From: an uncultured Phycisphaerales bacterium
GTDB taxonomy: Bacteria > Planctomycetota > Phycisphaerae > Sedimentisphaerales > Anaerobacaceae
Direction: 5' to 3'
DNA: 64,000 bases
NCBI GenBank assembly: GCA_963718665.1
Contig: OY970359.1
Location: forward strand, 1,984,001 to 2,048,000
Shown here piece by piece: positions 38,921 through 59,135 of this stretch; within the stretch, counting starts at the first letter, position 1; every line of letters starts with the position of its first letter. The notes beneath the pieces were generated by a model. The model worked only from the letters and a program-made list of their open reading frames with translations, was not told the origin of the DNA and searched no databases. A program made the translations under genes and the position numbers.

Positions 38921-38972
38921 CTCAGCGAAATCCGCGAAATCAGCGTCTGAAATTATAGTGTTAATCAGTGTC
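38921..38972. repeat. Right-arm-like 9-bp repeats
   Basis: ctcagcgaa-atccgcgaa-atcagcgtc and atagtgtta-atcagtgtc. Confidence 0.6.
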
Positions 38973-43300: not shown

Positions 43301-44945
43301 TGCCGACGAACGACATTAAGCTCATCACAAGCCCTTCCCGAAGGGGGTCTATCGCGGGGTTTGTAACCTGGGCGAATAACTGCTTGAAATAGTTGAACAG
43401 CAGTTTCGGTTTGTCCGACAACACCGCCAGTGGTGTGTCGTTACCCATCGAGCCGACCGGCTCCTGCCCGTTTACCGCCATCGGCGTCAAAATCATCTTC
43501 AGCTCTTCGCTGGTGTAGCCGAACGCCCGCATCTTTCGCAGCGTTTTTTCTGTGTCGCTGCTGATAAGCTCAGGAGTATCGAACAGCCCTCGCAGCTCAA
43601 TCCGGTTTTCCTCAAGCCATCGCCGGTATGGTCTGCGTCTCGCGATTTTGCTCTTTATTTCGTTGTCGGTGATTATCCGGCCTTCGACCGTATCGACTAA
43701 GAACATATTTCCCGGTCGCAACCGGCCCTTCCTGATTATCTTTTCCGGCGGGAACTCTACCACGCCCGCTTCGCTTGCTATTACCGCCAGGCCGTCGGTT
43801 GTAACTAAATACCTGCATGGTCTTAACCCATTGCGGTCCAGTGTGCCTCCTATGAACCTTCCATCGGTAAATACCATTGCCGCGGGGCCATCCCACGGCT
43901 CCATTATCGAGGAGTGATATTCGTAGAACGCACGCTTGTCGGTGCTGATGTGATATTTTGGCCCGAACGCCTCCGGTATCATCATCATCATCGCGTGCGG
44001 CATACTTCGCCCGGCACGCACTAAAAGCTCCAGTGCCGCGTCAAAACATCCCGAATCGCTCGTATCCTCAGGCAGAACAGGCAGCAGGTCGCCTATTTCG
44101 TCGCCAAATGCCTCGCTTGCCATTGTCGTTTCGCGGGCGCGCATATAATTACGGTTTCCGCTGAGCGTATTGATTTCGCCGTTATGTGCTACGCAACGAA
44201 ATGGCTGCGCCAATCGCCAATTAGGGAAAGTATTTGTGCTGTATCGCTGGTGAACTATCGCAAGGGCGGATTTAACTCGTTTGTCGGCTAGGTCCGGATA
44301 ATACGCGAACAACTGCTTCGCCATAAACATACCTTTGTAGCAGATTGTCCTGCCGGATAACGAGGTTATGTAAAAATCCTCACTCGCCTTGCCCAGTTTC
44401 TCACGCACAATCCGTTCGGCCCTGCGTCTGGCCATATAAAGCCGGCGTTCAAACAGGTCGCTCTGCGAATCTACTCCGTAAACGAATACCTGTCTTATCG
44501 ATGGCTCCGCGGCAATCGCGATTTCACCGAGGCAGTTGTTGACAGTTGGAACATTCCGCCAACCTATCACTTTCATACAGTGGTGACTAATGGCTGATTC
44601 GAGAATCTGGTCGCATTGTTTGCGGATTTCGGCGTTTTTCGAGCCGAAGACCATTCCCACTGCGTAGAATGCCGGCTCAGGCAAAGTAAAACCGAGTTGG
44701 GAGCATTCTTCCGCGAAAAACTCGTGCGGAATCTGAAACATAATACCCGCTCCGTCGCCTGTCATTTCGTCTGCGCCTGCTGCGCCGCGATGATGCAGGT
44801 TTATCAGTATTTCTTTGCCGTATTCGATTATCGAATGGTCTTTTGCTCCGTCTATGTTAACGACGGCCCCTATGCCGCAGGCATCGTGCTCACGCCGGAC
44901 TTCGTAAAGTCCCTGGTCTTTTTGTCTCATTATTTCCTTATGCAT
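40380..44945 (-). CDS. gltB: Glutamate synthase large subunit
   Basis: EHDACG, HQRYSTNTFP, EPWDGPA, QGAKPGEGGQLPG, ISPPPHHDIYSIEDL. Confidence 0.98.
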   Translation of the reverse strand: MHKEIMRQKDQGLYEVRREHDACGIGAVVNIDGAKDHSIIEYGKEILINLHHRGAAGADEMTGDGAGIMFQIPHEFFAEECSQLGFTLPEPAFYAVGMVFGSKNAEIRKQCDQILESAISHHCMKVIGWRNVPTVNNCLGEIAIAAEPSIRQVFVYGVDSQSDLFERRLYMARRRAERIVREKLGKASEDFYITSLSGRTICYKGMFMAKQLFAYYPDLADKRVKSALAIVHQRYSTNTFPNWRLAQPFRCVAHNGEINTLSGNRNYMRARETTMASEAFGDEIGDLLPVLPEDTSDSGCFDAALELLVRAGRSMPHAMMMMIPEAFGPKYHISTDKRAFYEYHSSIMEPWDGPAAMVFTDGRFIGGTLDRNGLRPCRYLVTTDGLAVIASEAGVVEFPPEKIIRKGRLRPGNMFLVDTVEGRIITDNEIKSKIARRRPYRRWLEENRIELRGLFDTPELISSDTEKTLRKMRAFGYTSEELKMILTPMAVNGQEPVGSMGNDTPLAVLSDKPKLLFNYFKQLFAQVTNPAIDPLREGLVMSLMSFVGKKQNFLEESPEHCRQLKLPHPILTNEDIERLRAVKREDFRVATIHAVFDIDEPDAGESLRKALDTLVDDAEKAIRNGVSLVIISDRNISQDKAAIPSLLATGAVHHGLLGRGLRGEAGLIIETGEPREVMHFCLLCGYGANAINPYLAFETLFELRRQGHLPAKMELTQIADNYIAAVKKGILKVMSKMGISTLRSYTGAQLFEAIGLNRDVIDKYLTGTSSRVGGIGLDEIASEAISRHKAAFEEHPAGTPALELGGEYLFRHTGERHTWNPVTVSRLQQAVRSNNPKLYGEFAQAVNEQAEKLCTLRGLFEFEPGKSVPIEEVEPASEIVKRFCTGAMSHGSISKETHECLAIAMNRIGAMSNTGEGGEDPARYTPEPNGDSKNCGIKQVASGRFGVTINYLSHAKELQIKIAQGAKPGEGGQLPGHKVTEEIARLRYSTVGVTLISPPPHHDIYSIEDLAQLIYDLKCSNPGVRVSVKLVAEVGVGTIAAGVAKANADEVLISGHDGGTGASPLSSIKHAGIPWELGLAETQQVLVMNRLRDRIRVQADGQMKTGRDVVVGALLGAERFGFGTAALVTLGCTLLRKCHEGACPFGIATQDPELRKRFRGKPEYLERYMFFVAEEVRQIMSQLGFKKFEDMIGRADRLGTNKAIEHWKSKGLDFSMIFHKPDVSDGRATRQIVSQPDKLADHLDWQIIEKAKPAIENKKHTVIEMNIRNLNRAVGTILSNRIVTKNGPEGLPDNTLEVLFNGSAGQSFGAFLAPGVTFKLTGESNDYLGKSLSGGRIAVITPAGAPFAAKENIIAGNTLLYGATSGEVFINGMAGERFAVRNSGAIAIAEGVGDHCCEYMTGGTVVVLGRTGCNFAAGMSGGIAYVLDETSNFDTLCNLDMVELESVWQKEDVKILMDLIQKHFDWTGSARAHQILSNWQDMVGKFVKVVPFDYRKSLEKMRAAEQRDTETTPATEEVFYG

Positions 44946-45113
44946 TGTCTGTCTCGCTGTATGTTTGCCGGCTCACTAATCCTTCTCGCACAAGTGAAGA
45001 ATGCACATCTTATTATACGTCCGGCGAGATTGCAAATCCTCTCTATTCGGGTAATATAACCCATAAGAGATATTGATATTACTTCCAGAATATCTTATGC
45101 TTGTTTACATAAA

Positions 45114-45172
45114 ATGGGGTGAGGCCCGACTCGTTTGGTCCCTAAGGGATTACATGAGCAGGCCTCACCCGC
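45114..45172. other. Long hairpin between glnA and gltB
   Basis: gggtgaggcc...ggcctcaccc outer stem with inner tccc-taa-ggga; possible terminator or processing stem. Confidence 0.5.
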
Positions 45173-45235
45173 AACCCAATGCCCACTGCACGACCATTCG
45201 TGCAGCTTCGCCCAAAAATGAAACTAACATCATTC

Positions 45236-45306
45236 ACCGCTGAGCACGCTGAGACCGCTGAGAAAAAACATAATTCAATCTCTGCGTGCTCCGCGTTCTC
45301 TGCGGT
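45236..45306. repeat. REP-like palindromic element made of 9-bp units (copy 4)
   Basis: ccgctgagc-acgctgaga-ccgctgaga ... ctctgcgtg-ctccgcgtt-ctctgcggt. Confidence 0.8.
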
Positions 45307-45324
45307 AAAAATTAACAGTGACTA

Positions 45325-46737
45325 CTACGCATCGTAATAGAGATGGAACTCATGCGGATGCGGTCTCAATGCTATCTCGTCTATCTCCTTTTCCCGTTTC
45401 CACTGAATCCATGTCTCGATAAGGTCTTCGGTAAAGACATCGCCCTCGGTGAGGAACTTATGGTCCTTTTCGAGCGCATTCATCGCTTCTTCGAGGGAGC
45501 CTGGCGCCTGCTTGGTTTTGGACAACTCTTCCGAGGAAAGCTCGTACACGTCCACGTCCATCGGTTTGCCGGGGTCGAGCTTGCGTTTGATGCCGTCGTT
45601 GGCTGCCATAAGCATCGCGGCGAAAGTGAGATAGCCGTTGCAGCTCGGGTCCGGGCAACGGAACTCAACGCGTTTTGCCTTCGGATTCGGTGAGTACATC
45701 GGGATACGGCAGGCGGCTGACCTGTTGCGTGCCGACATACAAAGATTTACCGGCGCCTCAAAGCCCGGAACGAGCCGGCGATATGAATTTGTAGTCGGTG
45801 CCCCGAAAGCTATGATGGCCGGAGCATGGGTGATAAGCCCGGCAATTGCGTGTAAAGCAAGGTCAGACAGACCCGCATAGCCTTTTCCGGCGAAGAGGTT
45901 GACGCCTTTCTTCCAGAGCGAGAAGTGCGTGTGCATCCCGGAACCGTTGTCCTGGAATATCGGTTTGGGCATAAACGTCGCCGTCTTGCCGTGGCGTTTG
46001 GCTACGTTCTTGACGATGTATTTATACCACATAAGCTGGTCGGCCTGTTTGACTAATGGTGCGTAAAGCATGTCAATTTCGGCCTGGCCCCCTGTTGCGA
46101 CTTCATGGTGGTGTTTCTCGACCACAATACCGACCTTCTGCATTTCCTCGACCATTTCGCCACGGATATCCTGCTGGGTGTCGGTCGGGCTTACAGGGAA
46201 ATAGCCGCCTTTATACGACGGTTTGTATCCGAGGTTGGGTTCTTCGAAACGGGCAGTGTTCCAGTTACCTTCCACCGAATCGATTGAATACATTCCGGTA
46301 TGCTGATTCTGCTCATATCGAACTTCGTCGAAGATAAAGAATTCCGGCTCAGGGCCGTAATATGCGGTATCCGCCAAACCGGTCTTTTTCGCGAATTCAG
46401 CCGCTTTCTTAGCTATATTTCGCGGGTCACGATTGTATTCTTCGCGTGTGATGGGGTCGATGATGTCCGTAAGGACGCTCACCGTCGGCTTAGCGAAGAA
46501 GGAGTCCATAACCACGGTATCCAGGTCCGGAACCGCCATCATATCCGACTGATGAATTGGTTTCCAGCCGCGGATTGATGAACCGTCGAAACCAAGCCCT
46601 TCCTCAAATGCCTTTTCATCCAGGAACTCGATTGGGAAGGTACAGTGCTGCCAGGTGCCAAGAAGATCGACGAACTTCAAGTCCGCCATCTTGGCATTGT
46701 TCTTTTTTGCAAAATCAAAGAATTCTTTTGGAGTCAT
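45325..46737 (-). CDS. glnA: Glutamine synthetase type I
   Basis: [45 protein letters not shown]; Tyr in DVDVYEL at the adenylylation-loop position. Confidence 0.97.
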
Positions 46738-46799
46738 TTTTCCACCTCTCTAATAAAATTGGGTTGCTAATATTTTTCCCGCTACGAGCGGATTGTTTT

Positions 46800-47141
46800 T
46801 TATCCTATTGCCGAATTTCCTTTTTCACCCGTTCTGATACGAATACATTCGGGCAGGTCGAGCACGAATATCTTGCCGTCGCCGATTTGCCCTGTTCTTG
46901 CGCCATCAATGACTGCTTTTATCGTCGGCTCGACAAAGGTATCGTTTACTGCTACCTCCAACTTTACCTTTCTCAATAAACTGCCCTGTTCTTTATGGCC
47001 TCGGTAGACCTCTGCTACGCCTTTTTGTCTGCCTCGGCCCACAACATTCGACACCGTTACAAGGTGGATTTCTTTTTCCTCTAATCTTTTAAGCACTTCA
47101 TCAAGTCGGTCCGGCTGAATCACAGCGATTATGTATTTCAT
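46800..47141 (-). CDS. glnK: P-II nitrogen regulator (amtB-linked)
   Basis: [32 protein letters not shown]. Confidence 0.93.
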
Positions 47142-47160
47142 TTACCTCGTCCTTTCTCGC

Positions 47161-48501
47161 TTAATCGATTAAAGTATAGGCGGCCTCTCGATGTTGTGTC
47201 AAGTCCAGGCCGACGCGTTCTTCGTGCTCACTTACTCTCAGTTTGATTACCACGTCCACAAACTTCAGAAGCACAAAACCAATTACGAAGGAGTAAACCG
47301 CCGTGACAAGCACGACCTTTAACTGAATCCATAATTGTACCGGGTTGCCGTAAAATAAACCATCGGCTCCGTCGGGATTGATTGTTTTTGTGGCCCACAG
47401 CCCCGTTGCAATCACGCCCCAGATTCCGCCGATTCCGTGAACGCCAAAGGCGTCCAGTGAGTCGTCGTAACCGAGTTTGGTTTTAAGACAGGTTACTACC
47501 AGCCACGGAAATACCCCGGCCCCTATACCGATACAGATTGCTCCGATGGGTGTGACGTATCCGGATGCCGGCGTTACAGCCGCCAGACCCGCCACCGCAC
47601 CGGTTATCATTCCCAGGGTCGTGGGTTTTTTATACCTGAGCCAGTCAAGCACGGACCACGTTACGCCCGCGACTGCGCCTGCTATATGCGTAACGGCAAA
47701 AGCGTTGCCCGCAAGTCCCGATGCCTTCAGTGCGCTGCCCGCGTTAAAGCCGAACCACCCGAACCAAAGCAATCCCGCGCCAAGCGCCGCAAACGGCAAA
47801 TTGTGCGGAGGAGATATACCGGCGGGATAACCCTGTCGTTTCCCCAGTATCAGGGCAGCCGCCAGTGCCGTCATGCCTGCGTTAATGTGAACCACTGCGC
47901 CGCCGGCAAAGTCCAGTGCGCCCATGTTCTTCAGGAAACCGCCGTTGCCCCAGAGCCAGTGCGTAATCGGGTTATACACGATTGTCGCCCAGAGCAGGAT
48001 GAAAATCACAAACGCCGAGAATTTCATTCTTTCCGCGAATGCCCCGATGATTAACGCAGGCGTTATCACCGCGAACATCATCTGGAACATCATAAACACC
48101 TCGTGCGGGATAGTTGGTGCATAAGCGGCATTTGGCGTCATACCAACGCCATTCAGAAAACTCCAGTCCAGCCCGCCTATTATGCCGTGCTTGTCCGGCC
48201 CGAACGACAAGCTGTATCCGCATACGACCCATTGGATGCTTATTATGCACAGGGCCATGAAGCACTGCATCAGGACCGACAGCATATTCTTGCGTCGGAC
48301 AAGTCCGCCGTAGAAAAACGCCAGTCCCGGCGTCATAAGCATAACAAGCGCTGCGCTTATCAATACCCATGCCGTATCACCTGTGTCGATTGTCGAATTT
48401 TGACTTGTCAAAGAACCAGCGTTAACTAACTGCTGTGTCTCACAAATCCCTGTCCCGGCAGTCAATAAAATGACCACCGCTATAGCCAGAGTTGTTCTCA
48501 T
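47161..48501 (-). CDS. amtB: Ammonium transporter (copy 1)
   Basis: LMTPGLAFFYGG, DFAGG.VVH, WFGWFGFNAGS, DDSLDAFGVHG. Confidence 0.96.
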   Translation of the reverse strand: MRTTLAIAVVILLTAGTGICETQQLVNAGSLTSQNSTIDTGDTAWVLISAALVMLMTPGLAFFYGGLVRRKNMLSVLMQCFMALCIISIQWVVCGYSLSFGPDKHGIIGGLDWSFLNGVGMTPNAAYAPTIPHEVFMMFQMMFAVITPALIIGAFAERMKFSAFVIFILLWATIVYNPITHWLWGNGGFLKNMGALDFAGGAVVHINAGMTALAAALILGKRQGYPAGISPPHNLPFAALGAGLLWFGWFGFNAGSALKASGLAGNAFAVTHIAGAVAGVTWSVLDWLRYKKPTTLGMITGAVAGLAAVTPASGYVTPIGAICIGIGAGVFPWLVVTCLKTKLGYDDSLDAFGVHGIGGIWGVIATGLWATKTINPDGADGLFYGNPVQLWIQLKVVLVTAVYSFVIGFVLLKFVDVVIKLRVSEHEERVGLDLTQHREAAYTLID

Positions 48502-48686
48502 TTCTCTTTGCTCCTTTTGTGTCGGTTCGTAATCACACCCGGCTTCTGTATGCGGTAAGCCAGAAAAAAACCGACAGCCGGCGAGCTCCGCGGGAAACTA
48601 ATCCTGCGGTTTCACACTCGTTCGGTGCTCTTAAATGAACACAAACTTCAAATTTGTTGACATACTACGGCTGCGCTCAACCTTAC

Positions 48687-48702
48687 GCAAACCTTATGCC
48701 AG
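48687..48702 (-). promoter_or_regulatory. Sigma54 -24/-12 promoter of amtB1-glnK-glnA
   Basis: CTGGCATAAGGTTTGC on minus. Confidence 0.85.
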
Positions 48703-48790
48703 CACACCTCTTAAGGGTCTTTTTTCACGTAACGTCTTGTAATAACAACAGTTATGCTCATTAAAAGCAGGGAGTTATCAAAGAGCAAAT

Positions 48791-48834
48791 TTACATTATT
48801 GTAATTTTCCAAAATATTTTTTACATTTTTGTCA
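48791..48834. promoter_or_regulatory. Paired upstream activator sites TACA-N4-TGT, 30 bp apart
   Basis: ttacattattgtaa (48791) and ttacatttttgtca (48821). Confidence 0.75.
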
Positions 48835-48852
48835 CTTTTGATGTTAAAATGG

Positions 48853-48879
48853 GGGCTCTGGCAGCCGTGCACAGAGCCC
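48853..48879 (-). terminator. 3' hairpin after PII copy 2 with CGGC apical loop
   Basis: Minus strand GGGCTCTG-T-GCA-CGGC-TGC-CAGAGCCC followed by CCATTTT. Confidence 0.6.
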
Positions 48880-48927
48880 TCTCAGGCAAGGGCGCCCTGT
48901 GGGCACCCCGTCTTTTCGTTTACCCTG

Positions 48928-49269
48928 TTACCCGATTGCCTCATTGCCTTTTTCGCCCGTTCTAATACGGATACATTCAGGCAGGTCGAGCACGAATATC
49001 TTGCCGTCGCCGATTTGTTCTGTTCTTGCGCCGCCGATGACTGCTTCGATTGCCGGCTGGACGAACGCCTCGTTCACCGCTATCTCAATTTTAACCTTTC
49101 TCAGCAAGCTGCCCTGTTCCTTGTGGCCCCGGTAAACTTCCGCTATACCTTTTTGTCTGCCCCGGCCGACAACGTTCGATACTGTGACTAAGTGAATCTC
49201 TTTTTCCGTCAGGCGTTTGAGCACTTCGTCAAGTCGGTCCGGCTGAATTACCGCGATTATGTATTTCAT
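48928..49269 (-). CDS. glnK: P-II nitrogen regulator (amtB-linked, copy 2)
   Basis: Near-identical to 46800-47141. Confidence 0.93.
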   Translation of the reverse strand: MKYIIAVIQPDRLDEVLKRLTEKEIHLVTVSNVVGRGRQKGIAEVYRGHKEQGSLLRKVKIEIAVNEAFVQPAIEAVIGGARTEQIGDGKIFVLDLPECIRIRTGEKGNEAIG

Positions 49270-49286
49270 TGGTTTATTCCTTTCTC

Positions 49287-50639
49287 TTAGTCAATAATGG
49301 TATATGCTGCTTCACGGTGTTGCGTTAAGTCCAGACCGACCCGTTCTTCGTGTTCGGTTACACGCAATTTCATTACGATATCCACAGCTTTAAGCAGCAC
49401 TATTCCAACAACAAAAGAATAAACTGCTGTAACAAGCACGGCTTTGACTTGTATCAGGAATTGAGCGGGATTCCCGTAGAGCAAACCGTCGGCCCCGGCG
49501 GGATTTACCGTTTTTGTGGCAAAGATGCCGGTTGCTATTGCTCCCCACATACCGCCTACGCCGTGGACGCCGAAGGCATCGAGCGTATCGTCATAGCCAA
49601 GCAGGTTTTTGAAATACGTCACGGCAAACCATGGAATTACCCCGGCGCCTATACCAATCCATATTGCGCCCATCGGATTGACGAATCCGGAAGCGGGAGT
49701 TATTGCTACAAGGCCGGCCACTGCGCCGGTAATCAGACCAAGCGTCGTGGGCTTTTTGTGTTTAAACCAGTCAAGAATTGCCCAGGACACGCCTGCTGCC
49801 GCGGTGGCAACATGGGTCGCGGTAAATGCGCTGACTGCCAGACCACCAGCTCCCAATGCGCTGCCGGCATTGAAGCCGAACCAGCCAAACCACAGTAACG
49901 CCGCTCCCAGCACTGCAAAGGGCAGATTATGAGGAGGAGATATTCCATTTGGATATCCTTGACGTCGGCCAAGAACAAGTGCCGCCGCAAGAGCGGTCAT
50001 ACCCGCGTTGATATGCACCACGGTTCCGCCGGCAAAATCAAGCGCGCCCCAGTTTCTTATGAATCCGCCAACTCCCCATACCCAGTGTGCAACGGGGTCA
50101 TATACGATTGTCGCCCATAACAGCATAAAAACACACAACGCCGAGAATTTCATCCGTTCCGCGAACGCGCCGACAATCAAAGCCGGCGTTATCACGGCGA
50201 ACATCATTTGGAACATCATAAATAGTTGGTGCGGAATTGTCGGTGCGTAATCGGCGTTTGGAGCAAGCCCCACGTTCTTCAGGAAAGACCAGTCAAGCCC
50301 GCCTATAAGTGAACGGTGGTCGGGGCCAAAAGACAAGCTGTAACCGAAGAGCACCCATTGCAAACTAATCAGGCACAGTATCATCAGGCATTGCATCAGT
50401 ACGGAGAGCATATTTTTACGTCGGACCAGCCCGCCGTAGAAAAACGCTAGGCCCGGTGTCATAAGCATTACAAGTGCAGTGCTTATAAGCACCCACGAGG
50501 TGTCTCCCGTGTCAATTTTCGGCACCGGAGCCGCAACTGCCGCGGTTAGCGTCGCGCTCGACGCGGGCGCTGCAGTATCACAAAATGCAGTTCCCGCACT
50601 CAGCAAGATGAGTATTGTTGATATAAGTATTCTTTTCAC
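49287..50639 (-). CDS. amtB: Ammonium transporter (copy 2)
   Basis: Same Amt motifs including both conserved His; GTG start with AAGGAG RBS. Confidence 0.96.
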   Translation of the reverse strand: MKRILISTILILLSAGTAFCDTAAPASSATLTAAVAAPVPKIDTGDTSWVLISTALVMLMTPGLAFFYGGLVRRKNMLSVLMQCLMILCLISLQWVLFGYSLSFGPDHRSLIGGLDWSFLKNVGLAPNADYAPTIPHQLFMMFQMMFAVITPALIVGAFAERMKFSALCVFMLLWATIVYDPVAHWVWGVGGFIRNWGALDFAGGTVVHINAGMTALAAALVLGRRQGYPNGISPPHNLPFAVLGAALLWFGWFGFNAGSALGAGGLAVSAFTATHVATAAAGVSWAILDWFKHKKPTTLGLITGAVAGLVAITPASGFVNPMGAIWIGIGAGVIPWFAVTYFKNLLGYDDTLDAFGVHGVGGMWGAIATGIFATKTVNPAGADGLLYGNPAQFLIQVKAVLVTAVYSFVVGIVLLKAVDIVMKLRVTEHEERVGLDLTQHREAAYTIID

Positions 50640-50683
50640 GGCTTTTTACTCCTTGTAAAAATTGATAATTAGTTGTCCACCAA

Positions 50684-50730
50684 TACGGCTGTCTATAGTA
50701 TTCTTAATTACGGCTGTCTATAGTATTCTT
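50684..50730. repeat. Exact 22-bp direct repeat (25-bp period) in the amtB2 leader
   Basis: tacggctgtctatagtattctt at 50684 and 50709. Confidence 0.9.
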
Positions 50731-50731
50731 C

Positions 50732-50747
50732 GCAAACCTTGTGCCAG
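50732..50747 (-). promoter_or_regulatory. Sigma54 -24/-12 promoter of amtB2-glnK
   Basis: CTGGCACAAGGTTTGC on minus (full TGGCAC-N5-TTGC). Confidence 0.9.
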
Positions 50748-50835
50748 AATGCCTTTTTGGTGGCCGTTTTTACATAAGGCCTTGTAAAAGCCGCGGTTAC
50801 GCTTGCTGAAAGTATTAAATTGCCAAAGAGCACAG

Positions 50836-50879
50836 TTACATTTTTGTATATCTAACTTGATATTTTTACATTTATGTCA
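50836..50879. promoter_or_regulatory. Paired upstream activator sites TACA-N4-TGT, 30 bp apart
   Basis: ttacatttttgtat (50836) and ttacatttatgtca (50866). Confidence 0.75.
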
Positions 50880-50896
50880 TTTTAGGCGTTAAAAGT

Positions 50897-50928
50897 ATGG
50901 GCTCCGCCAGCCGTGGAACGAAGCCCAT
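50897..50928 (-). terminator. 3' hairpin after PII copy 3 with CGGC apical loop
   Basis: Minus strand ATGGGCTTCG-TT-CCA-CGGC-TGG-CGGAGCCCAT followed by ACTTTT. Confidence 0.6.
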
Positions 50929-50958
50929 TTATACCAGGACGGTCCTTATGGGGTCCTG

Positions 50959-51300
50959 TTATTTTATCGCGGAGTCGCCGCGTTCTCCCGTGCGAATTCT
51001 TACGGCATCATCAACGGGCGAGATAAATATCTTGCCATCGCCTGGCTTGCCGGTAAAAGCCGTGTCTTGTATGGCCTTGACAATTTTCTCGGTATCGCTG
51101 TCTTTGACCACCACTTCGATTCTTGCCTTGGTCATCAGCCCGACTTTATAAGTTTTACCACGGACTTCCTGTTGGAGGCCTTTTTGTTTACCGTGCCCTT
51201 CGATTTCAGTAATCATAAGGCCCGGATATTCAACTTTTTCCAGAACGGCACATATTTCAGCGACCTTGGCGGGTCGAACTATAGCTTCAATTCTCTTCAT
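50959..51300 (-). CDS. P-II nitrogen regulator (divergent copy 3)
   Basis: MKRIEAIVRP, GHGKQKG..VRGKTY, TGKPGDGKIFI, VRIRTGE. Confidence 0.92.
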   Translation of the reverse strand: MKRIEAIVRPAKVAEICAVLEKVEYPGLMITEIEGHGKQKGLQQEVRGKTYKVGLMTKARIEVVVKDSDTEKIVKAIQDTAFTGKPGDGKIFISPVDDAVRIRTGERGDSAIK

Positions 51301-51366
51301 TTTTATGTTCCTTTCTTAACGGCTCTATACAAAAACCTTCAATATTCAGAGCGGTATCAATCTTTG

Positions 51367-53307
51367 CTAAATCGCAGACACGCCTTTTTCTCCGGTTCGA
51401 ATTCGCATTGCTTCCGACGCGTCCATCACAAAGATTTTTCCATCGCCGGCTTCGCCGGTGTATAAAACTTCTCTTATTATTTTCATTACGTACGGCACAT
51501 CCCACTTTTTGACTAATATATCGACCCGGTCTTTCGGAACAAAATACGTCATATTTATGTCGGAGTTCTCATCATCCACATCTATATGACCTCTTTGTCT
51601 GCCGAAACCTTTGACTTTAGTTACCGTCATTCCCATAAGAAGCTCTTCGTCTTTAAGGACCTCGGCGAGGATGTTAAGCCGTTCAGGACGGATGACGACC
51701 GATATCATCTTCAAGTCGTAGGTTTTGCTCACTGTGCCGACGGCGACGTACAGAAAGCTCGCAATGGCCCAGGCGCCGCACATATAGAAGCAAATCTTTG
51801 CCTCCGTTTTCGAATCGGCGTTGCCGATGGCATACAGGTAAATTATCGCCGCCAGCATAATGAGGTTTGCAATCACCCCGAGGACTGGAATAATCCAGTG
51901 TTTCGGGAGTTTGAAATCGGCTCTCTTTTTGAAAGCGACAATTGTCCATACACAGGTCAAACCATAGAGGACAAAAGTGCCGAAGTTCGAGGCGAGCGTA
52001 ATTCCCGTAAGACCGACTACTGAACGGACCCCTATGGCGGCGATTATGCAGGAAACAATTACCAGCGTCCACAAAGCTGTATGAGGGGTGCCGTGTTTGC
52101 TTATAAAGCTGAGGAATTTCGGTAATTCAAGGTCTTCTCCCATTCCGCAGGTGACGCGGACGGCCGTGTTCATACAGCTTAAAGTCGTGCCGATTACGGC
52201 GATTGCCACGGTTACGGCCATAGTAATCATCAGGCCAAAGCCGAGACCATGAAACAAACTGTTGCCGAGGATTTGCGCGAGGTCCCCGATAGGAGCGCTT
52301 GAGCCGGCGGCGGCAGCCATTCCGGTTACTGCTGCTGTTTGCCCGGCAGCGGTAAACGTTAGCTTTTCATTTATCATATAACCTGCGCCGAAATACTCCA
52401 GCAGATACGCAAACAATCCCTGAATTACCAAGGACAGGATAATGGCCTTTGGAATCGTGGATTTAGGGTTCTTTACCTCAGCGGCCAGGGCGGTGCAGCT
52501 TTCAAAACCGACCAGTATCAAAATAGCGAGGGTCGATTGAATCAGGACGCCGTTAAGCGTATGTGGACGGATGACGTCCCAGGCGCCGCTGAAAGACCAT
52601 GTTGTTGCCGCCTGGGGATTCGAGAAACGGTAATAAATGGCCAGGGCGGTGAAAACAACCAGGGTAACGAGCTGTATGATGTTAATCCAGATTGCGGTTA
52701 TCGTTGAGCCGGTTACGCCGCGATATGCTATGTATCCTGTGGCGAAAGCAAATACCGCGGCAATTATAACCAGCATCTCTACTGACAGCGTATTTCCGCT
52801 GAACGCCGTGTAGAGATAACCAATCAGGTTGGCCATCATAGCCACCATAACGCCTGGATATACCCAGTAGAAAAGGTGGGCGGCCCATCCGGTAACTATT
52901 TTTGACATACGGGCCAGGGAGGTAGGCGTTCCTCTTTTCAGGTTCTGGCTGTCAAGAAATGCCTTCTCCGCGAAATAGGTAACGCTTGCAAAACCCGCTT
53001 CGGGATATATCTTGGCAAGCTCCGAGTAGGAAATAGCGGTAAGAAAGCAAAGGCCTAATGCAACCACTATCCCCGACCAGATATCGCTTGCAACCGAAGC
53101 CCCGCTTGGGGAGGTGGCGGCGGCCTGGAGCTGATATGTAATCCACAGGAACGCCCCCGGGGCAATTAGCGCCATAGCGTTTGCGGTGGCGCCAAACAAG
53201 CCCAGCGTGGCTTTTATTTGGGGTTCGGCTGCTATTTTCCCGACCCCGGCGCTCGCAGTAGCCGCACCAGTTTCAATCCCATTTTCAATCGTTATGCTTG
53301 TAGACAT
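51367..53307 (-). CDS. APC-family amino acid/amine permease fused to a C-terminal P-II domain
   Basis: About 12 TMs with ANAMALIAPG and LVGFESCTALAAEVKNPK..IPKAI; last ~113 aa KMISVVIRPE..GMTVTKVKGFGRQRG..TGEAGDGKIFV..MRIRTGE in the same frame. Confidence 0.88.
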   Translation of the reverse strand: MSTSITIENGIETGAATASAGVGKIAAEPQIKATLGLFGATANAMALIAPGAFLWITYQLQAAATSPSGASVASDIWSGIVVALGLCFLTAISYSELAKIYPEAGFASVTYFAEKAFLDSQNLKRGTPTSLARMSKIVTGWAAHLFYWVYPGVMVAMMANLIGYLYTAFSGNTLSVEMLVIIAAVFAFATGYIAYRGVTGSTITAIWINIIQLVTLVVFTALAIYYRFSNPQAATTWSFSGAWDVIRPHTLNGVLIQSTLAILILVGFESCTALAAEVKNPKSTIPKAIILSLVIQGLFAYLLEYFGAGYMINEKLTFTAAGQTAAVTGMAAAAGSSAPIGDLAQILGNSLFHGLGFGLMITMAVTVAIAVIGTTLSCMNTAVRVTCGMGEDLELPKFLSFISKHGTPHTALWTLVIVSCIIAAIGVRSVVGLTGITLASNFGTFVLYGLTCVWTIVAFKKRADFKLPKHWIIPVLGVIANLIMLAAIIYLYAIGNADSKTEAKICFYMCGAWAIASFLYVAVGTVSKTYDLKMISVVIRPERLNILAEVLKDEELLMGMTVTKVKGFGRQRGHIDVDDENSDINMTYFVPKDRVDILVKKWDVPYVMKIIREVLYTGEAGDGKIFVMDASEAMRIRTGEKGVSAI

Positions 53308-53417
53308 AATTTGTTTCTCCTTTAGTAAACACTACGGATAGTCAATATTCAAAACACATCGACAATTTCCACAAATCGCATTTTTGCCTTTAATAATTCA
53401 ATCGGTTTTATTCCGTT

Positions 53418-54197
53418 TTAAAACGAAGTTGATATTCCTAATCCTGCCCAGAAGTTGTCGCTCTTGTTCGTGGCTTCCCGTATCGAGTTGCCGAGCATTG
53501 TCGAGTAGTTGAGGCTTGGTTTAATCGTCCACGTATAGACATTGAAGGGCAGTCCCGCCGTAAGCGTAAGGTCGTTTGACTGGCCGCTGTTTACGCCGAA
53601 GTAGCCCCTGTCATAAGCCGCGTTGGCCCAGCCATAGCTTGCGCCTAAAAGTAAGCCGCAATAGCAATTCTCGTTCATTACGTAAATCTTATCGAAGGTT
53701 TGCCCGATGCTGTACTGGAAATAACTGCCGTGGATTTCCTGGATGTCGCGAAACCACTTGAACGAAGGCGTCAAAGGTACTTTGGGCAAACTGAAGCCGC
53801 CGTAAATTTCAGTTGTTGGATGAAGCTCAGTGCTCGGGAACTGATAGTAAATTGTGCCAACCGAGCCGCTTAACCAATCAATACCCGGAATCGTATTGGT
53901 GTAATCGAGTGTCAAGTCGTATTCGCTGAACCCCCCGGCGTTGTCGGGGGCGGTCTTGGACCTGTTTGTCATGTCAAGGTTGCCCCAGATTGAGCCGGTA
54001 AAGCCATAGGCACTTGCGGAGATGGTTGGCTGCAGCACGCTGCTGTTGTCAACGTTCTGGCCTCGCCAGATATACTTGCTGAAGTAATCCAAGGAAACCC
54101 CATATGTAACAACCTTGTCGTCGGCTGCCGCTGTTCCCGCCGCAAATGTAATCAACGCGAGCCCCAATACAACACTACCAGTTCTTAACGACTTCAC
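53418..54197 (-). CDS. Outer-membrane beta-barrel, TorF/Gcw_chp-like putative porin
   Basis: Signal peptide, SKYIWRG, QPTI..YGF..IWG, EYDL..DY, TTEIY, C-terminal Phe (GLGISTSF). Confidence 0.75.
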   Translation of the reverse strand: MKSLRTGSVVLGLALITFAAGTAAADDKVVTYGVSLDYFSKYIWRGQNVDNSSVLQPTISASAYGFTGSIWGNLDMTNRSKTAPDNAGGFSEYDLTLDYTNTIPGIDWLSGSVGTIYYQFPSTELHPTTEIYGGFSLPKVPLTPSFKWFRDIQEIHGSYFQYSIGQTFDKIYVMNENCYCGLLLGASYGWANAAYDRGYFGVNSGQSNDLTLTAGLPFNVYTWTIKPSLNYSTMLGNSIREATNKSDNFWAGLGISTSF

Positions 54198-54276
54198 TTT
54201 TTTCTCCTTTCAAAAACCACCTAAAATAATGTTCGTTAGTTTTTCGCACAGTGGGCTTGGGCCGCATATCAGATAA

Positions 54277-54292
54277 GCAATAACTGTGCCAG
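54277..54292 (-). promoter_or_regulatory. Sigma54 -24/-12 promoter of porin-APC/PII-PII
   Basis: CTGGCACAGTTATTGC on minus. Confidence 0.9.
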
Positions 54293-54383
54293 AAACAGGA
54301 AGAGTTGCTTGCGCATTACATAACTCCTTTATTTTGCTGTCGTTACGATTGTTTTGTCGCGGGGTCTATCGTAGGGGTGATTT

Positions 54384-54427
54384 ATACAAAAATGTAAATG
54401 TGCCTAATATCGACTACAAAAATGTAG
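54384..54427. promoter_or_regulatory. Paired upstream activator sites TACA-N4-TGTA, 30 bp apart
   Basis: atacaaaaatgtaa (54384) and ctacaaaaatgtag (54414). Confidence 0.75.
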
Positions 54428-54439
54428 CCAAATGGCGTA

Positions 54440-55969
54440 TCAGGAAAGCAGTTTCGGGTAAATGGCGTACGTCTTTATTTTGTAGCCGAGGATTCGTTCG
54501 GTTAGGCCAAGCTCCTGGGCGGCCTTTCTCTGCTGGCCGCCGGATTTCTTCAGCGCGTCGATGATAAGCTCTCGCTCTTTGTTGGCGATTATCTCGGCCA
54601 AAGAGTGCCCGGCGACTTGCTCGCTCTTTTTTATCATTTGAAGCGAAGGAGGCAGATGCTCCGAGCGTATTACATCTTCATCGCAGAGCAGCACCGCTCT
54701 CTCGATGCAATTTTCCAGCTCCCTGATGTTGCCCGGCCAGTGGTAGCTCGTCAGCATTTCTATTGCAGGTGTTGAAATGCGGGTTATGTTCTTTTTGTTC
54801 TCCGCGGCGTATTTCTCAAGGAAATGGTCCGCCAACTGCATTATATCATCTTTGCGTTCTCTCAAAGGCGGCAGGTAAATCGGGAAAACGTTTACCCGGT
54901 AATACAAGTCCTCGCGGAAGATGCCTTCTTTTATCTGCTGTTCAAGGTTTTTGTTTGTGGCGACGATAATCCGAACGTTTGATTTGATTGTTTCGTTGCC
55001 GCCAAGCCGCTCGAATTCCTTGAATTGAATCACCCGCAATAATTTGATCTGCAGATTGATGGGGAAATCGCCTATTTCATCTAAGAATATAGTACCGCCG
55101 TGCGCCCTTTCGAATCTGCCTGTTTTGAGTTCCGTCGCGCCTGTAAAAGCTCCTTTTTCGTGCCCGAACAATTCGCTTTCGAGCAGTGTTTCTGGCAGGG
55201 CGGTGCAGTTGACCTTGATAAAGGGCTTTTCCGCCCTCGGGCTGTTATAGTGAATGGCGTGGGCCACGAGGTCCTTGCCTGTGCCGCTCTCGCCGCGAAT
55301 CAGAACGGTCGCGTTGCTGTCGGCCACCTGTTCGACGAGCCGGTACACCTGCTGCATTGCGTTGGAGCTTCCTACCATATTTTGAACGTTGAATCGCGTC
55401 TTTAATTCCTGTCGAAGCCGGACGTTTTCGTCGCGGAGCTGTCTTTGTTCGGATTCCACCAGCTTGTTCAGCTTTACCGCCTGGGCAATCATAGTGGAAA
55501 TGATATTGAGCAGCCGGATGTGGCTTTCAAAATCATTATTTTTTTCGGTCTGGCGGTCCACGCTGAGAGCTCCGATGGTTTTGCCTTCGAGCTTGATGGG
55601 AACACAGAAGAACGTTATCGGCCTGCCTTTTGTTGTGTCTCTTGCCCCTGTTTTGTGGACGAAGCGCGGGTCTTTGGATATATCAGGCACGATGATTTCT
55701 TTGCCGGTTTGCACAACTGTTCCGGTTATACCCTCGCCCATCCGGTATATTCCCTTTTTTTTCGACTTTTCGCTCAGGCCGTGGGCTATCTCGATATTTA
55801 TGGTTTCGGTGTCCGGGTTCAGCAGGGTGATTGTCCCGCGTTGCAGCTTCAGGTAAGTGTCCAGCGACTGCAGAATCGAGCGCAGCGTCTGCTTCAGGTC
55901 CAATGATTCCGCAAGCCCCTTTGCTATATCGCTTAAAAGCTGCACTTCCTTGGCTGGATTGGCTTTCAT
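54440..55969 (-). CDS. NifA-like sigma54-dependent activator (GAF-AAA+-HTH)
   Basis: GAF (GEGITG.V..G..P.F..FFCVPI..GALSVD), [33 protein letters not shown]-terminal HTH; no receiver domain. Confidence 0.92.
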
Positions 55970-56004
55970 TTTTGATTCCTAAACAATAACGGCTGTCGGC
56001 GGAT

Positions 56005-56033
56005 ATGATAACAAGATTGTAGGCAAAATGCAA
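56005..56033 (-). promoter_or_regulatory. Putative sigma70 promoter of the activator, with an ACA-N4-TGT site in its spacer
   Basis: TTGCAT-N17-TATCAT on minus; acaagattgt at 56011-56020. Confidence 0.6.
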
Positions 56034-56073
56034 TAAACAACAATTTCGTATTTTTGACAATCGGCGCCCATAG

Positions 56074-56109
56074 AAAAAGCGACCCCGCCTCGTGAAGAGG
56101 CGGGGTCGC
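56074..56109 (-). terminator. Rho-independent terminator of the surface-protein gene
   Basis: 13-bp perfect stem GCGACCCCGCCTC/GAGGCGGGGTCGC followed by a T-run on minus. Confidence 0.85.
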
Positions 56110-56140
56110 CTGAAAAACTTCTAATCAAGAGTTGTTACAA

Positions 56141-58645
56141 CTAAGGAGCCGGGCAATTGGCGTCAATCGTCATAGCAGCATTTGTCCAGAACGGGTTAGC
56201 GTTAGCATCGGCAACTAATACCGAAGCGCCGGTGGTGCCGCAAAGAACAGAACCAACACCAATTGGACCAGTGGCATCGCCCCAATAGTTATGCTGGGCG
56301 TTCAAAGTTGTTGATCCGATGTTGTTATAGACGGTAGCGATGGCGCCGCCCGGGGTCCGCAGGATTGTGTTACCTCTAAACAGTAAACCAGGCCAATTGA
56401 CGTCAGTGGTTCTGCCGATAGCGTCAATCGCGAGTGCGGCATCCTGGCTTCCAGCCGAGAACGTATTGCCGCTGATGGTCATGCTCTGCAGACGGTAATT
56501 GTCATTACCGTCGGTGCCGAGAGCGGGAGCGATTTCAGATACAAGAATTCCACCGCGACTGAAGGTGTTGTTGGAGATAGTCACGTTAATCAAATTGGTC
56601 TCATTAGGTCCGACCACAACAGACATGCCGTGGTCCGCAGTGTTACCGGAGATAGTTACGCTGCAGGCATCGGACTGTGCGAATTTCACGAAGTTGACAT
56701 CCGCTGTTACCACCTTGGTGAACGTGTTGTTGGTGATAGATATGTTCCTGACTGTTGCTACTGTTGTTCCGTTTGCGAATCCAGGACCAAGATAAACACC
56801 ATTAGCGTCATTCTCAAAGGTGTTATTCGCAATTGTAACCCCATTGGCAGCGTCTATTCTCACACCCATTCTCGCAATACCGACGTTGTTGAGGTCGCAG
56901 TAAGAGACCACCGTGTTATTTTGATTTGCGCCGATTAGGGCGACGGTGCCGGTAGTGGTGCTGCCCTTAATGGCGAAGCCCTGTCCTGCCGAGCCACCGA
57001 TTGTGCAGCCAGGGGAAAGGATGCTTATACCATTAGCTTCAGGAGGTACAAGTTGAATAATCGTAGAAGCAGAGCCGCTCGCCGAGTTAAGCGTAATATT
57101 GGGCTCAGGGAGACAAGGGTCTTCGTTATACGTTCCTGCCGGGATGGTAACAGTTGTAGGTGCGTAAGGAGAACCACCACGGGTGGCAACGGCGATGTTT
57201 ATCTGTGTCTGGATGGTTAGCGGAGTTGTTGCTCCTAAAGCAGCGGACCAGGCGGTTGTATTGCTACAGGCATCTTCTGCCTGGACCTGGTAGCTATATG
57301 TGTTATTTTGAGTGCAATTTCCATCCGTGAAGTTTCCATCGGCGAGCCAACCCCTGCACACAACTAATCCACCTGTGCTGTACCGGAATCGATACATGAC
57401 ACCACAAGGATCGGTCGCGTGTGCCTGCATAGTAATTGAGGTGGGGCTTGTGGCATAAGGGGGTATCGAGAAAACCAGCCCTGCCGGTGGGGTTGTATCC
57501 ACTAGAGTAGTTGCGTTTGCCTCGACTGATGCAGCCGTTACATTCGGCACCAAAGCGTCATCCCGGGCCATTACATTGTAGTCATACCTCTTACTAGGAG
57601 TAAGGTTGCTGTCTACGTAGGTCGGTGTGAGTATCCAGCCGCTGTTGTGATTATTGGGATCCTGCATATTTGTAAAGTAGTACTGTACAGGAGGAGCGTT
57701 GGGCTCAGTTGCGGTTGTCGCGGTCATTGTAATTTGAGTGCTACTTATCGCCGCAGGTACACTTGCCCACGTCATTGGATTTGGAGTAGGCGAGGTGGTG
57801 GTCGCTGTTTTGTTGGTTCTTGCGGTTGCACTGGCTGATGGGTCGGTTAAATTCGGCACAGCCGCGCTATCCTCGGCCGTTACAGTGTATGTGTAATTAG
57901 TATCAGGAGTAAGGCCGCTGTCTGTCCAGGTCGCAGAGGTTATCCAGCCGCTGTTGTGACTGGTATTGGTACTATTTACAAAGGAGTATTGTACAGGAGG
58001 AGAGGCAGCATCGGTTGCGGTTGTTGCGGTCATTGTAATTTGAGTGTCGCTTAGTGCCGCAGGTACACTTGCCCACGTCATTGGGTTTGGTGTAGGTGGA
58101 GTGGTATCTGCGATAACGGTGTATTTTGTCAGAGACTCGGAGATGTCATTAACGGCATCGGGAACATCCTTGCCCGCTTCAGATTTCGTCCACTTAGGGT
58201 CCAATGTCGCAGTCATAGCGCCAAAGCCCAATTCGCCGACAAGTATGGAGCCGTTCAGGGTTTTCGCGACAGTTTTACCGGTGAGACCAACAGCTCCTCC
58301 ATCAGCAGTTTTTCCAGCCAGCACTGCTTCGTTATTGCCGCTCACATAATGAGCAACTAAGTAGCCGGTCTCGGAAGTAAAATCAAACGTTACGTTTACT
58401 GTTGTTTGCGTTTTATCCGCGGCCTTAACACCCTGATAGGTCAACTGTTGTGCATCGCAGACGTCTTGAGTATCAGTGACAACGAGCACTAAGTAGCCGT
58501 TCAGTGTTTGCGCCACAATTGCGCCGCTGCTAAAATCCGAGGTCTTTTGGGTAGTTTTGTAAACAAGAGTGTTGTTGCCATAACTGGGGACACACATCAT
58601 CGCCACAAAAACTGCCACAAAAACTAATACTAACAACTTTCTCAT
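56141..58645 (-). CDS. Large secreted/surface protein: three FN3-like repeats and a right-handed beta-helix region
   Basis: Signal peptide MRKLLVLVFVAVF with AAGGAG RBS; repeated PTPNPMTWASVP..ITMTATTAT..VQY.F..SGW..D..LTP; repeated I.NNTF/ISGNTF and NAQHNYWG. Confidence 0.8.
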   Translation of the reverse strand: MRKLLVLVFVAVFVAMMCVPSYGNNTLVYKTTQKTSDFSSGAIVAQTLNGYLVLVVTDTQDVCDAQQLTYQGVKAADKTQTTVNVTFDFTSETGYLVAHYVSGNNEAVLAGKTADGGAVGLTGKTVAKTLNGSILVGELGFGAMTATLDPKWTKSEAGKDVPDAVNDISESLTKYTVIADTTPPTPNPMTWASVPAALSDTQITMTATTATDAASPPVQYSFVNSTNTSHNSGWITSATWTDSGLTPDTNYTYTVTAEDSAAVPNLTDPSASATARTNKTATTTSPTPNPMTWASVPAAISSTQITMTATTATEPNAPPVQYYFTNMQDPNNHNSGWILTPTYVDSNLTPSKRYDYNVMARDDALVPNVTAASVEANATTLVDTTPPAGLVFSIPPYATSPTSITMQAHATDPCGVMYRFRYSTGGLVVCRGWLADGNFTDGNCTQNNTYSYQVQAEDACSNTTAWSAALGATTPLTIQTQINIAVATRGGSPYAPTTVTIPAGTYNEDPCLPEPNITLNSASGSASTIIQLVPPEANGISILSPGCTIGGSAGQGFAIKGSTTTGTVALIGANQNNTVVSYCDLNNVGIARMGVRIDAANGVTIANNTFENDANGVYLGPGFANGTTVATVRNISITNNTFTKVVTADVNFVKFAQSDACSVTISGNTADHGMSVVVGPNETNLINVTISNNTFSRGGILVSEIAPALGTDGNDNYRLQSMTISGNTFSAGSQDAALAIDAIGRTTDVNWPGLLFRGNTILRTPGGAIATVYNNIGSTTLNAQHNYWGDATGPIGVGSVLCGTTGASVLVADANANPFWTNAAMTIDANCPAP

Positions 58646-59135
58646 CTTAATTCTCCTTTCGAATAACTTTTCCATCTTGAATACGTTTTTAATTCCTAAA
58701 ATATCCTCTTCGAATTTCTAATGGCCGTCTAATGGCTTTTCCATCCGCAAATCTCCTTTCTTATAACACCTTTAATACCTTCCCATCCTTTATTTCCTTT
58801 TTGCGTATAATAACCTTTTTCCGCCGACCGAAAAAAGGAAATTATACGCAAACATTTATATCCACAATATAAGAGTTATTCTCCAATCTTAATCACAACC
58901 CTAACTTGTTGTGCAATTTCAAAGGAAACGCCCTTATCAGTATTATCACCTTGTCTATAAAACTTCTTCGCGGTATATAATGACCGAGCTTTACGGCACA
59001 ATCAACAAAATTTTATTATTTTTTTGCAAAATTTTCAAAAGCGCCTATACTTTGTCTCAGCGTTCTTAAAACAAAGCATAAAGCTCGTTGATTGAAACCT
59101 AATTTAAAACCGGTTAATTATCAAGGAATATTTTT

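Follow-up and report, generated by a model that had tools for sequence, protein, structure and literature searches.

The window analysed here is the whole 64,000-nucleotide stretch of contig OY970359.1 (positions 1,984,001 to 2,048,000) from an uncultured Phycisphaerales bacterium (GCA_963718665.1), and all coordinates refer to it unless a locus is named. On its minus strand, a single open reading frame (ORF; 51367-53307) encodes a 646-amino-acid protein in which an APC-fold transporter is joined to a PII domain, and the next gene encodes a free PII protein. Namely, the window carries:

51720..53307, minus strand: APC-fold transporter domain, residues 1-529, with the invariant Pro50 in the motif of transmembrane helix 1 (TM1)
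51367..51719, minus strand: fused PII domain, residues about 530-646, with ligand residues kept, an acidic, variable T-loop and basic residues at positions 32 and 34
50959..51300, minus strand: free partner PII, 113 amino acids, with a 22-residue T-loop containing Arg47, Gly48 and Tyr51 and acidic residues at positions 32 and 34

We confirmed that the APC-PII fusion is real. The translation is stop-free, and Pfam profiles matched both parts above their cut-offs (AA_permease_2 at residues 67-504, 86.1 bits against 27; P-II at residues 533-640, 67.7 bits against 25). The domain junction, near 51717, is crossed by a DNA contig from run X1 (50700-52077) that shows neither a gap nor a differing letter; this run may itself be the source sample. 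It is also crossed by a contig from RNA run X8 (51618-51804) with 4 differences; contigs from RNA runs cover genes and give neither strand, level nor shared transcript. Both domains were present in all 120 best-scoring homologues, drawn from candidate proteins of 355-1131 amino acids only, and those closest to the fusion bear the labels Sedimentisphaerales or Phycisphaerales. With an identical contig across the junction and two-domain homologues throughout, an assembly artefact was rejected. The initial annotation, made from sequence alone, thus held in its description of the ORF: neither a stop nor a frameshift was seen at the junction, homologues are not always split, the motifs GFGRQ, TGxxGDGKIF and RIRTGE and an acidic, divergent T-loop are all found in the fused PII, and Pfam confirmed the free PII downstream.

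The ligand-binding residues of PII are retained in the fusion family. Across 74 fused domains, R9, G37, K58, G87 and K90 occur in all 74, R101 in 73 and Q39 in 68; R9, Q39, K58 and G87 line the 2-oxoglutarate (2-OG) pocket of PII, as described in the available part of PMC4282546. With its pocket residues kept, the 2-OG- and nucleotide-binding domain is intact. The fused T-loop (G37-K58) is 17-35 residues long, acidic and devoid of Arg47 and Tyr51, and the canonical GlnB/GlnK T-loop feature is absent. Among 77 rows of downstream PII proteins, 74 have a T-loop of 22 residues, 65 carry Arg47 and 67 carry Tyr51; the 77 rows include 6 further PII genes that are not true partners. Positions 32 and 34 form a second point of difference: KK, KR or RK in the fused domain is accompanied by EE in the partner at 61 of 71 loci, Glu34 is invariant in 55 curated partners, and fused DR with partner QE occurs at 6 loci of one branch, which amount to a single event. 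In the two Amt-linked GlnK proteins of the cluster (48928-49269 and 46800-47141), Tyr51 is missing (53 of 62 rows have Glu there), position 32 is N/E and position 34 is L/V; judged by these residues, they are an unusual PII subfamily.

The pairing of fusion and free PII is nearly fixed across a patchily distributed family. A scan of species-representative genomes (248 stretches confirmed) returned 79 loci: 73 fused, 3 unfused and 3 at a contig edge, with one locus counted as fused (L069) split inside its APC part, on a contig where other genes are broken too. The locus titles name Planctomycetota, Elusimicrobiota, Smithella and Desulfomonilia, Nitrospirota, Omnitrophota, Spirochaetota, Fibrobacterota, Firestonebacteria and FCPU426, while only 2 of 401 genomes in a phylum sample (this genome included) and 10 of 23 congeners matched. 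A full-library search found the wider APC family in 132 representatives at E up to 1e-30, and no PII domain in the 38 of these that were scanned, some of them fragments. When metagenomes were scanned with an alignment headed by an unfused member, 80 loci were returned. Both scans and one phylum-sample locus were pooled into 81 fused and 66 unfused loci, with 13 truncated loci left out; these counts include many kin and are not independent. Among genes with room to test, a free PII is the next gene at 75 of 78 fused loci versus 2 of 61 unfused loci, and a PP2C phosphatase and/or Ser/Thr kinase lies downstream at none of 70 fused loci and at 39 of 49 unfused ones. Where a locus reaches 8 kb, Amt, glutamine synthetase (GS) or glutamate synthase (GOGAT) is present in 45 of 72 fused and 24 of 33 unfused cases.

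A quick maximum-likelihood tree, built without an inferred root from 82 APC domains after dereplication, places the fused domains in a single branch (Shimodaira-Hasegawa-like approximate likelihood ratio test, 100) adjoining the kinase/phosphatase-linked forms; the only row marked as unfused within it is a contig-truncated gene. Since unfused forms are spread much more widely, this suggests that the fusion is the derived state. The fused PII domains likewise form one branch (support 100). The unfused module is itself widespread (L084, L085, L088, L095-L098 and others), running from APC permease through PP2C phosphatase and Ser/Thr kinase to GS/Amt/GOGAT, and is apparently undescribed so far.

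A predicted complex is compatible with the claim that the tethered PII could form heterotrimers with the downstream PII. A model of 1 fusion and 2 partner chains scored 0.67 against 0.00 for the best of 3 controls, on a scale whose mark was reached by 116 of 157 solved pairs and by 2 of 215 that were mismatched. Contact agreement between runs was 88% or higher, partner chains had a predicted local distance difference test (pLDDT) score of at least 74, and positions 32 and 34 of both sides lie inside the interface. Every confident contact is PII-PII; none is named between partner and APC domain, which is not evidence either way.

We modelled the fusion with AlphaFold2 from a 145-row alignment (pLDDT 86.9; predicted template modelling score 0.85), superseding an earlier run on 26 rows (pLDDT 58.8). 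The last helix of the carrier (497-530) continues straight into PII strand 1. Together with the Pfam match, the model bears out the proposed transporter identity: the nearest solved folds are MjApcT (Z 38.6, root-mean-square deviation 2.6 over 413 residues), mCAT1 (37.2) and GkApcT (36.9), and the comparison with MjApcT, CAT1, GkApcT and KimA spans Z 36-39 at 11-20% identity. A single-sequence search with the APC domain against solved structures gave 0 matches, and the fusion did not match PF00909, the profile of Amt/Mep/Rh ammonium channels; its fold is APC, not Amt.

In GkApcT, the substrate carboxylate is bound by the backbone amides of Thr43 and Gly44, the side-chain pocket is shaped by Ala119 and Met321, and Glu115 serves proton coupling (PMC5803215, as far as available). 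A profile alignment maps Thr43 to Pro50, Ala119 to Tyr150, Glu115 to Phe146, Lys191 to Gln212 and Asp237 to Glu269 of the fusion. The carboxylate-binding TM1 feature of the CAT/ApcT class is thus not kept, and one carboxylate contact would be lost because proline has no backbone NH. Pro50 and Tyr150 are each invariant in 145 of 145 rows, of which about 40 were retrieved with patterns containing these very residues; the Pro-Gly pair also occurs in 15 of 15 distant representatives not selected by that motif. His144, Tyr147, Trp148 and Gln212 are likewise invariant.

Similar to the fusion, the Escherichia coli putrescine importers PlaP and PuuP have the APC fold, a proline at the same TM1 position and comparable TM3 and TM10 patterns, and they gave the highest scores of 6 carriers tested against the family profile (59.1 and 55.5 bits; CAT-type 38.1, AdiC 15.5). 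They differ in that identity is only about 20%, their TM3 aspartate is Phe/Tyr here, and puu catabolic genes are absent. The neighbouring GS is not PuuA-like either: the FD(G/S)S motif is kept in 35 of 36 rows and EAP in 36 of 36, both being canonical motifs that are absent from PuuA, and no PuuA-type ligase was found among these 36. A gamma-glutamyl-amine pathway was rejected on these canonical motifs, although 4 of 11 GS proteins tested fell below the GlnA cut-off. A potassium carrier was likewise rejected, with a KimA-like protein scoring only 9.1 bits against the family profile, though genes labelled KimA-like by their motif occur at 13 of 72 fused loci. Among the neighbouring genes, no catabolic enzyme is seen repeatedly; a class I glutamine amidotransferase gene is present at 6 loci. 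The Atlas clusters nearest the APC part carry the automatic names 'dimethylamine permease' and 'putrescine transporter', which serve as a lead only. Taken together, Pro50 and Tyr150, the likeness to PlaP and PuuP and the canonical neighbouring GS favour a small cation without a carboxylate that would feed GS directly, either ammonium or a short amine.

We consider it about as probable as its negation (about 50%) that the fusion is an APC-fold carrier with a tethered PII, importing a small nitrogenous cation and switched by a PII heterotrimer with two partner subunits. We infer both substrate and gating, and within this reading the substrate would be ammonium (about 55%) or a methylamine-sized amine (about 45%). 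Under nitrogen shortage, the NifA-like activator encoded upstream would drive the sigma-54 promoter of porin, permease and partner. The tethered PII, with its degenerate T-loop, would serve as an anchor on which two partner subunits complete the trimer, so that an APC carrier that is probably not trimeric itself could bear a complete PII trimer. Binding of 2-OG and ATP/ADP may then move the partner T-loops or the helix linking TM12 to the PII sheet, and the carrier would close when nitrogen is plentiful, as 2-OG falls. The fusion would have arisen once, taking over from the PP2C/kinase control of the unfused relatives.

Several observations weigh against this reading. The Amt-linked PII of congener G413 also has E32/E34, with no fusion found in that genome, which weakened obligate charge complementarity at these positions. 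The partner PIIs form two branches, not one. Mirror-tree analysis gave a rank correlation of 0.53 over 67 loci; in the 28 loci that allow a control it was 0.15 versus 0.14 for GlnK, and so offered no support for co-evolution. The 1:2 assembly fits in the model, with a pass probably owed to likeness to solved PII trimers. Within the fetched DNA, 27 of 72 fused loci have no Amt, GS or GOGAT. Residues were matched to those of GkApcT through a profile alignment with about 17% identity, and the replacement of its coupling residues in TM3 and TM5 by Phe/Tyr146 and Gln212 also fits a non-transporting sensor. Finally, two Amt channels are already encoded in the genome, and the need for a third route for ammonium would have to be explained.

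The fusion and its partner lie within a minus-strand nitrogen-assimilation cluster, ordered as NifA-like activator, putative porin, fusion, free PII, two amt-glnK pairs, glnA and glutamate synthase genes:

54440..55969, minus strand: NifA-like sigma-54 activator with GAF, AAA+ and helix-turn-helix (HTH) domains by Pfam (TIGR01817, 554.7 bits against a cut-off of 528.85)
53418..54197, minus strand: putative outer-membrane protein, Gcw_chp-like by family matches, 259 amino acids, companion of the cluster
49287-50639, minus strand: amt1, library profile match
48928-49269, minus strand: glnK1, library profile match
47161-48501, minus strand: amt2, library profile match
46800-47141, minus strand: glnK2, library profile match
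45325-46737, minus strand: glnA, library profile match
40380-44945, minus strand: gltB, recognised from sequence, not by library scan
38972-40387, minus strand: gltD, recognised likewise

Comparison with congeners showed what can stand where the permease does. In 5 of 5 examined congeners that lack the fusion, the activator is followed by the porin and then an Amt: amt1 directly in G411, divergent Amt-GlnK pairs in G408, G414 and G427, and in G413 a divergent Amt with a PII 64% identical to the window partner, exactly in the permease-partner place. With Amt filling its slot there, the permease is exchangeable with an ammonium channel. By the same token, the porin belongs to the cluster and is not permease-specific, which weakened the idea in the initial annotation that porin and permease form a route special to organic nitrogen. 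The flanking gene is present, and its protein may act as a porin, judging from a signal-peptide-like start and terminal Phe. The window protein itself has no match in Pfam or NCBIfam; 5 of 16 members of its family match Gcw_chp (PF09694; best E 2.9e-8), and the family profile gave 0 matches against PDB. In the Herbaspirillum glnK-amtB operon, an upstream gene, nlmA, encodes a membrane protein (PMC3023670, in the part available). As a separate observation, at least 3 other outer-membrane-like families take the porin place beside the permease (L007:3728-4498, L022:6795-7958 and L036:10692-12116); one matches BBP2 (PF07642) and two have no Pfam match.

Candidate regulatory elements precede the transcription units of the cluster:

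54277..54291, minus strand: sigma-54 (-24/-12) box before the porin-permease-PII genes, exact TGGCAC-N5-TTGC
50732..50746, minus strand: second sigma-54 box, before amt1-glnK1, pattern match
48687-48701, minus strand: third sigma-54 box, before amt2-glnK2, one mismatch
54385..54426, no strand assigned: paired palindromes [TG]ACA-W4-TGT[AC], 30 bp apart (sites 54385/54415), candidate activator enhancer
50837/50867, no strand assigned: paired palindromes of the same pattern, 30 bp apart, before the amt1 box
48792/48822, no strand assigned: paired palindromes of the same pattern, 30 bp apart, before the amt2 box

Within the window alone, the sigma-54 pattern with one mismatch gave 4 matches versus 5.2 expected, not above chance; support for the boxes comes from placement, the genome-wide count and the other loci. 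Genome-wide, 3 of 7 relaxed boxes lie inside this cluster. A strict sense-strand box lies within 1.8 kb at 23 of 69 loci (antisense, 1; shuffles, 0.1), and 12 of these 23 are close kin of this genome. The palindrome pattern, which was derived from this window, has 19 matches in the genome, of which 6 make up the three 30-bp pairs, one ahead of each cluster box; a site also occurs at 17 of 39 box-bearing loci versus 0.4 expected, 6 of them outside close kin. The genome contains rpoN. The NifA-like protein is likely the cluster activator and the paired palindromes its candidate binding site. Full-length NifH was not found in this 94.6% complete genome, which has only short partial Fer4_NifH matches, so the activator would serve assimilation, not fixation. 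GlnD has no match in the genome either, which would leave PII to sense 2-OG and nucleotides directly. This cluster contains all four PII domains found in the genome.

This context bears on an alternative that we regard as unlikely, in which the APC domain is a sensor (a transceptor) binding external ammonium, an amine or glutamine, with the PII trimer signalling to GS or the NifA-like activator. In unfused relatives, it is the kinase/phosphatase pair that this sensor would drive. Such a role would suit a family accompanied by two kinds of signalling partner, as well as the loss of the GkApcT coupling residues Glu115 and Lys191, the lack of a GlnD match, the confinement of all PII domains found to the cluster and a NifA-like activator at 23 of 72 fused loci. 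APC carriers can also act as co-sensors, as LysP does with CadC. The fusion nevertheless stands behind a sigma-54 box with a porin, as uptake genes do, and Amt takes its slot in G413. Moreover, it is not a required sensor, because 13 of 23 congeners have no match, yet activator and GS are kept in 5 of 5 examined.

Somewhat more doubtful still is PII-gated import of amino acids, for example glutamine, glutamate or alanine. Amino-acid carriers are the closest solved folds, the TM6 acidic residue at the Asp237 position is kept (E269 in 144 of 145 rows), and import of glutamine or glutamate needs no catabolic neighbour. However, the 'amino-acid permease' label is doubtful because an invariant proline replaces the carboxylate-binding residue of GkApcT, as in putrescine importers, which also score higher against the family profile; a bulky Tyr occupies the side-chain pocket, and a separate CAT-type APC gene, whose TM1 bears the usual glycine motif, is present in the genome. 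Of the proposed organic-nitrogen (amino acid or amine) uptake, the nitrogen-regulated carrier stands, and the amino-acid part is weakened by the TM1 proline, the ammonium-assimilation neighbours and the lack of a recurring catabolic enzyme. A homotrimer, in which tethered PIIs join three carriers and the free PII serves other targets or merely competes, has little to recommend it: a complete fused domain could supply all three subunits, and PII control so far falls mostly on trimeric transporters (PMC10710835, available part), but the basic residues that most fused domains carry at both 32 and 34, the degenerate T-loop and a dedicated partner at 75 of 78 loci speak against it.

The preferred reading, a carrier held by a PII heterotrimer, has partial precedents. 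Like AmtB-GlnK of E. coli and Amt1-PII of cyanobacteria, the system has a PII gene directly 3' of a membrane nitrogen-uptake gene, a putative nitrogen-starvation promoter, a partner T-loop that keeps Arg47 and an Amt-PII pair in the same slot of a congener. Unlike them, it has an APC fold, one covalent PII, a predicted heteromeric trimer and no GlnD match in the genome; it would thus work like AmtB-GlnK yet is no member of that class. SbtA-SbtB and NrtABCD/UrtABCDE likewise place a non-Amt transporter under a PII-family protein, but their PIIs are free proteins (PMC10710835, available part). In the available text of that 2023 review, PII control is listed for Amt, NrtABCD, UrtABCDE and SbtA, seemingly limited to trimer-capable transporters, and 'APC' has no occurrence. 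NifI1/NifI2 of Methanosarcina form a 2:1 PII heterotrimer, called the only heteromeric case in the available part of 10.1101/2025.09.09.675011. There the target is nitrogenase, whereas here no full-length NifH was found, one subunit is membrane-tethered and the heterotrimer is predicted only. KimA and the GkApcT/MjApcT/CAT carriers share the fold, but the carboxylate and proton-coupling residues of GkApcT are not kept, and PII here takes the place of the cytoplasmic cyclic di-AMP domain of KimA. Literature searches at the level of listings, with subscription journals, supplements and TCDB outside their scope, found no published description of an APC-PII family.

PII is known to control transport by Amt, SbtA and two ABC systems, a mode of regulation for which a trimeric target has been thought necessary. 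If the preferred reading is true, a fused PII recruiting two free subunits would be a way for a non-trimeric carrier to use a trimeric sensor, in a two-gene system small enough to test this directly. A carrier of this kind importing ammonium or a small amine would be a form of regulated nitrogen uptake that has yet to be studied; should ammonium be the cargo, peat and sediment (wetland) bacteria of at least 9 named lineages would have a nitrogen-uptake route now annotated 'amino acid permease'. The exchange of phosphorylation and PII control within one transporter family would also offer a clean natural comparison of two regulatory modes.

Further observations concern the wider family and the window. 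At L014:10568-12559 and at 12 other fused loci, the nitrogen cluster includes an additional APC gene that is KimA-like. Lone Fis-type HTH genes of about 75 amino acids stand directly 3' of PII genes in Smithella-type clusters (L021:3083-3295, L026:4756-4980 and 7 more loci). Distant relatives with long low-complexity ends (P0129, P0131, P0133, P0139 and P0153) look eukaryotic, and a plasmid collection yielded distant APCs only. In the window, 56141-58675 encodes an 844-amino-acid protein that looks secreted, contains internal repeats rich in Thr and Pro and has no Pfam match at E 0.01. An Rfam scan over 44000-57000 gave nothing credible, including for a 26-bp tandem duplication in the amt1 leader (50683-50730). 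The CAGCCGT core of this duplication (minus strand) recurs in the amt2 leader (48667-48677) and in the leader of the activator gene (55990-56000).

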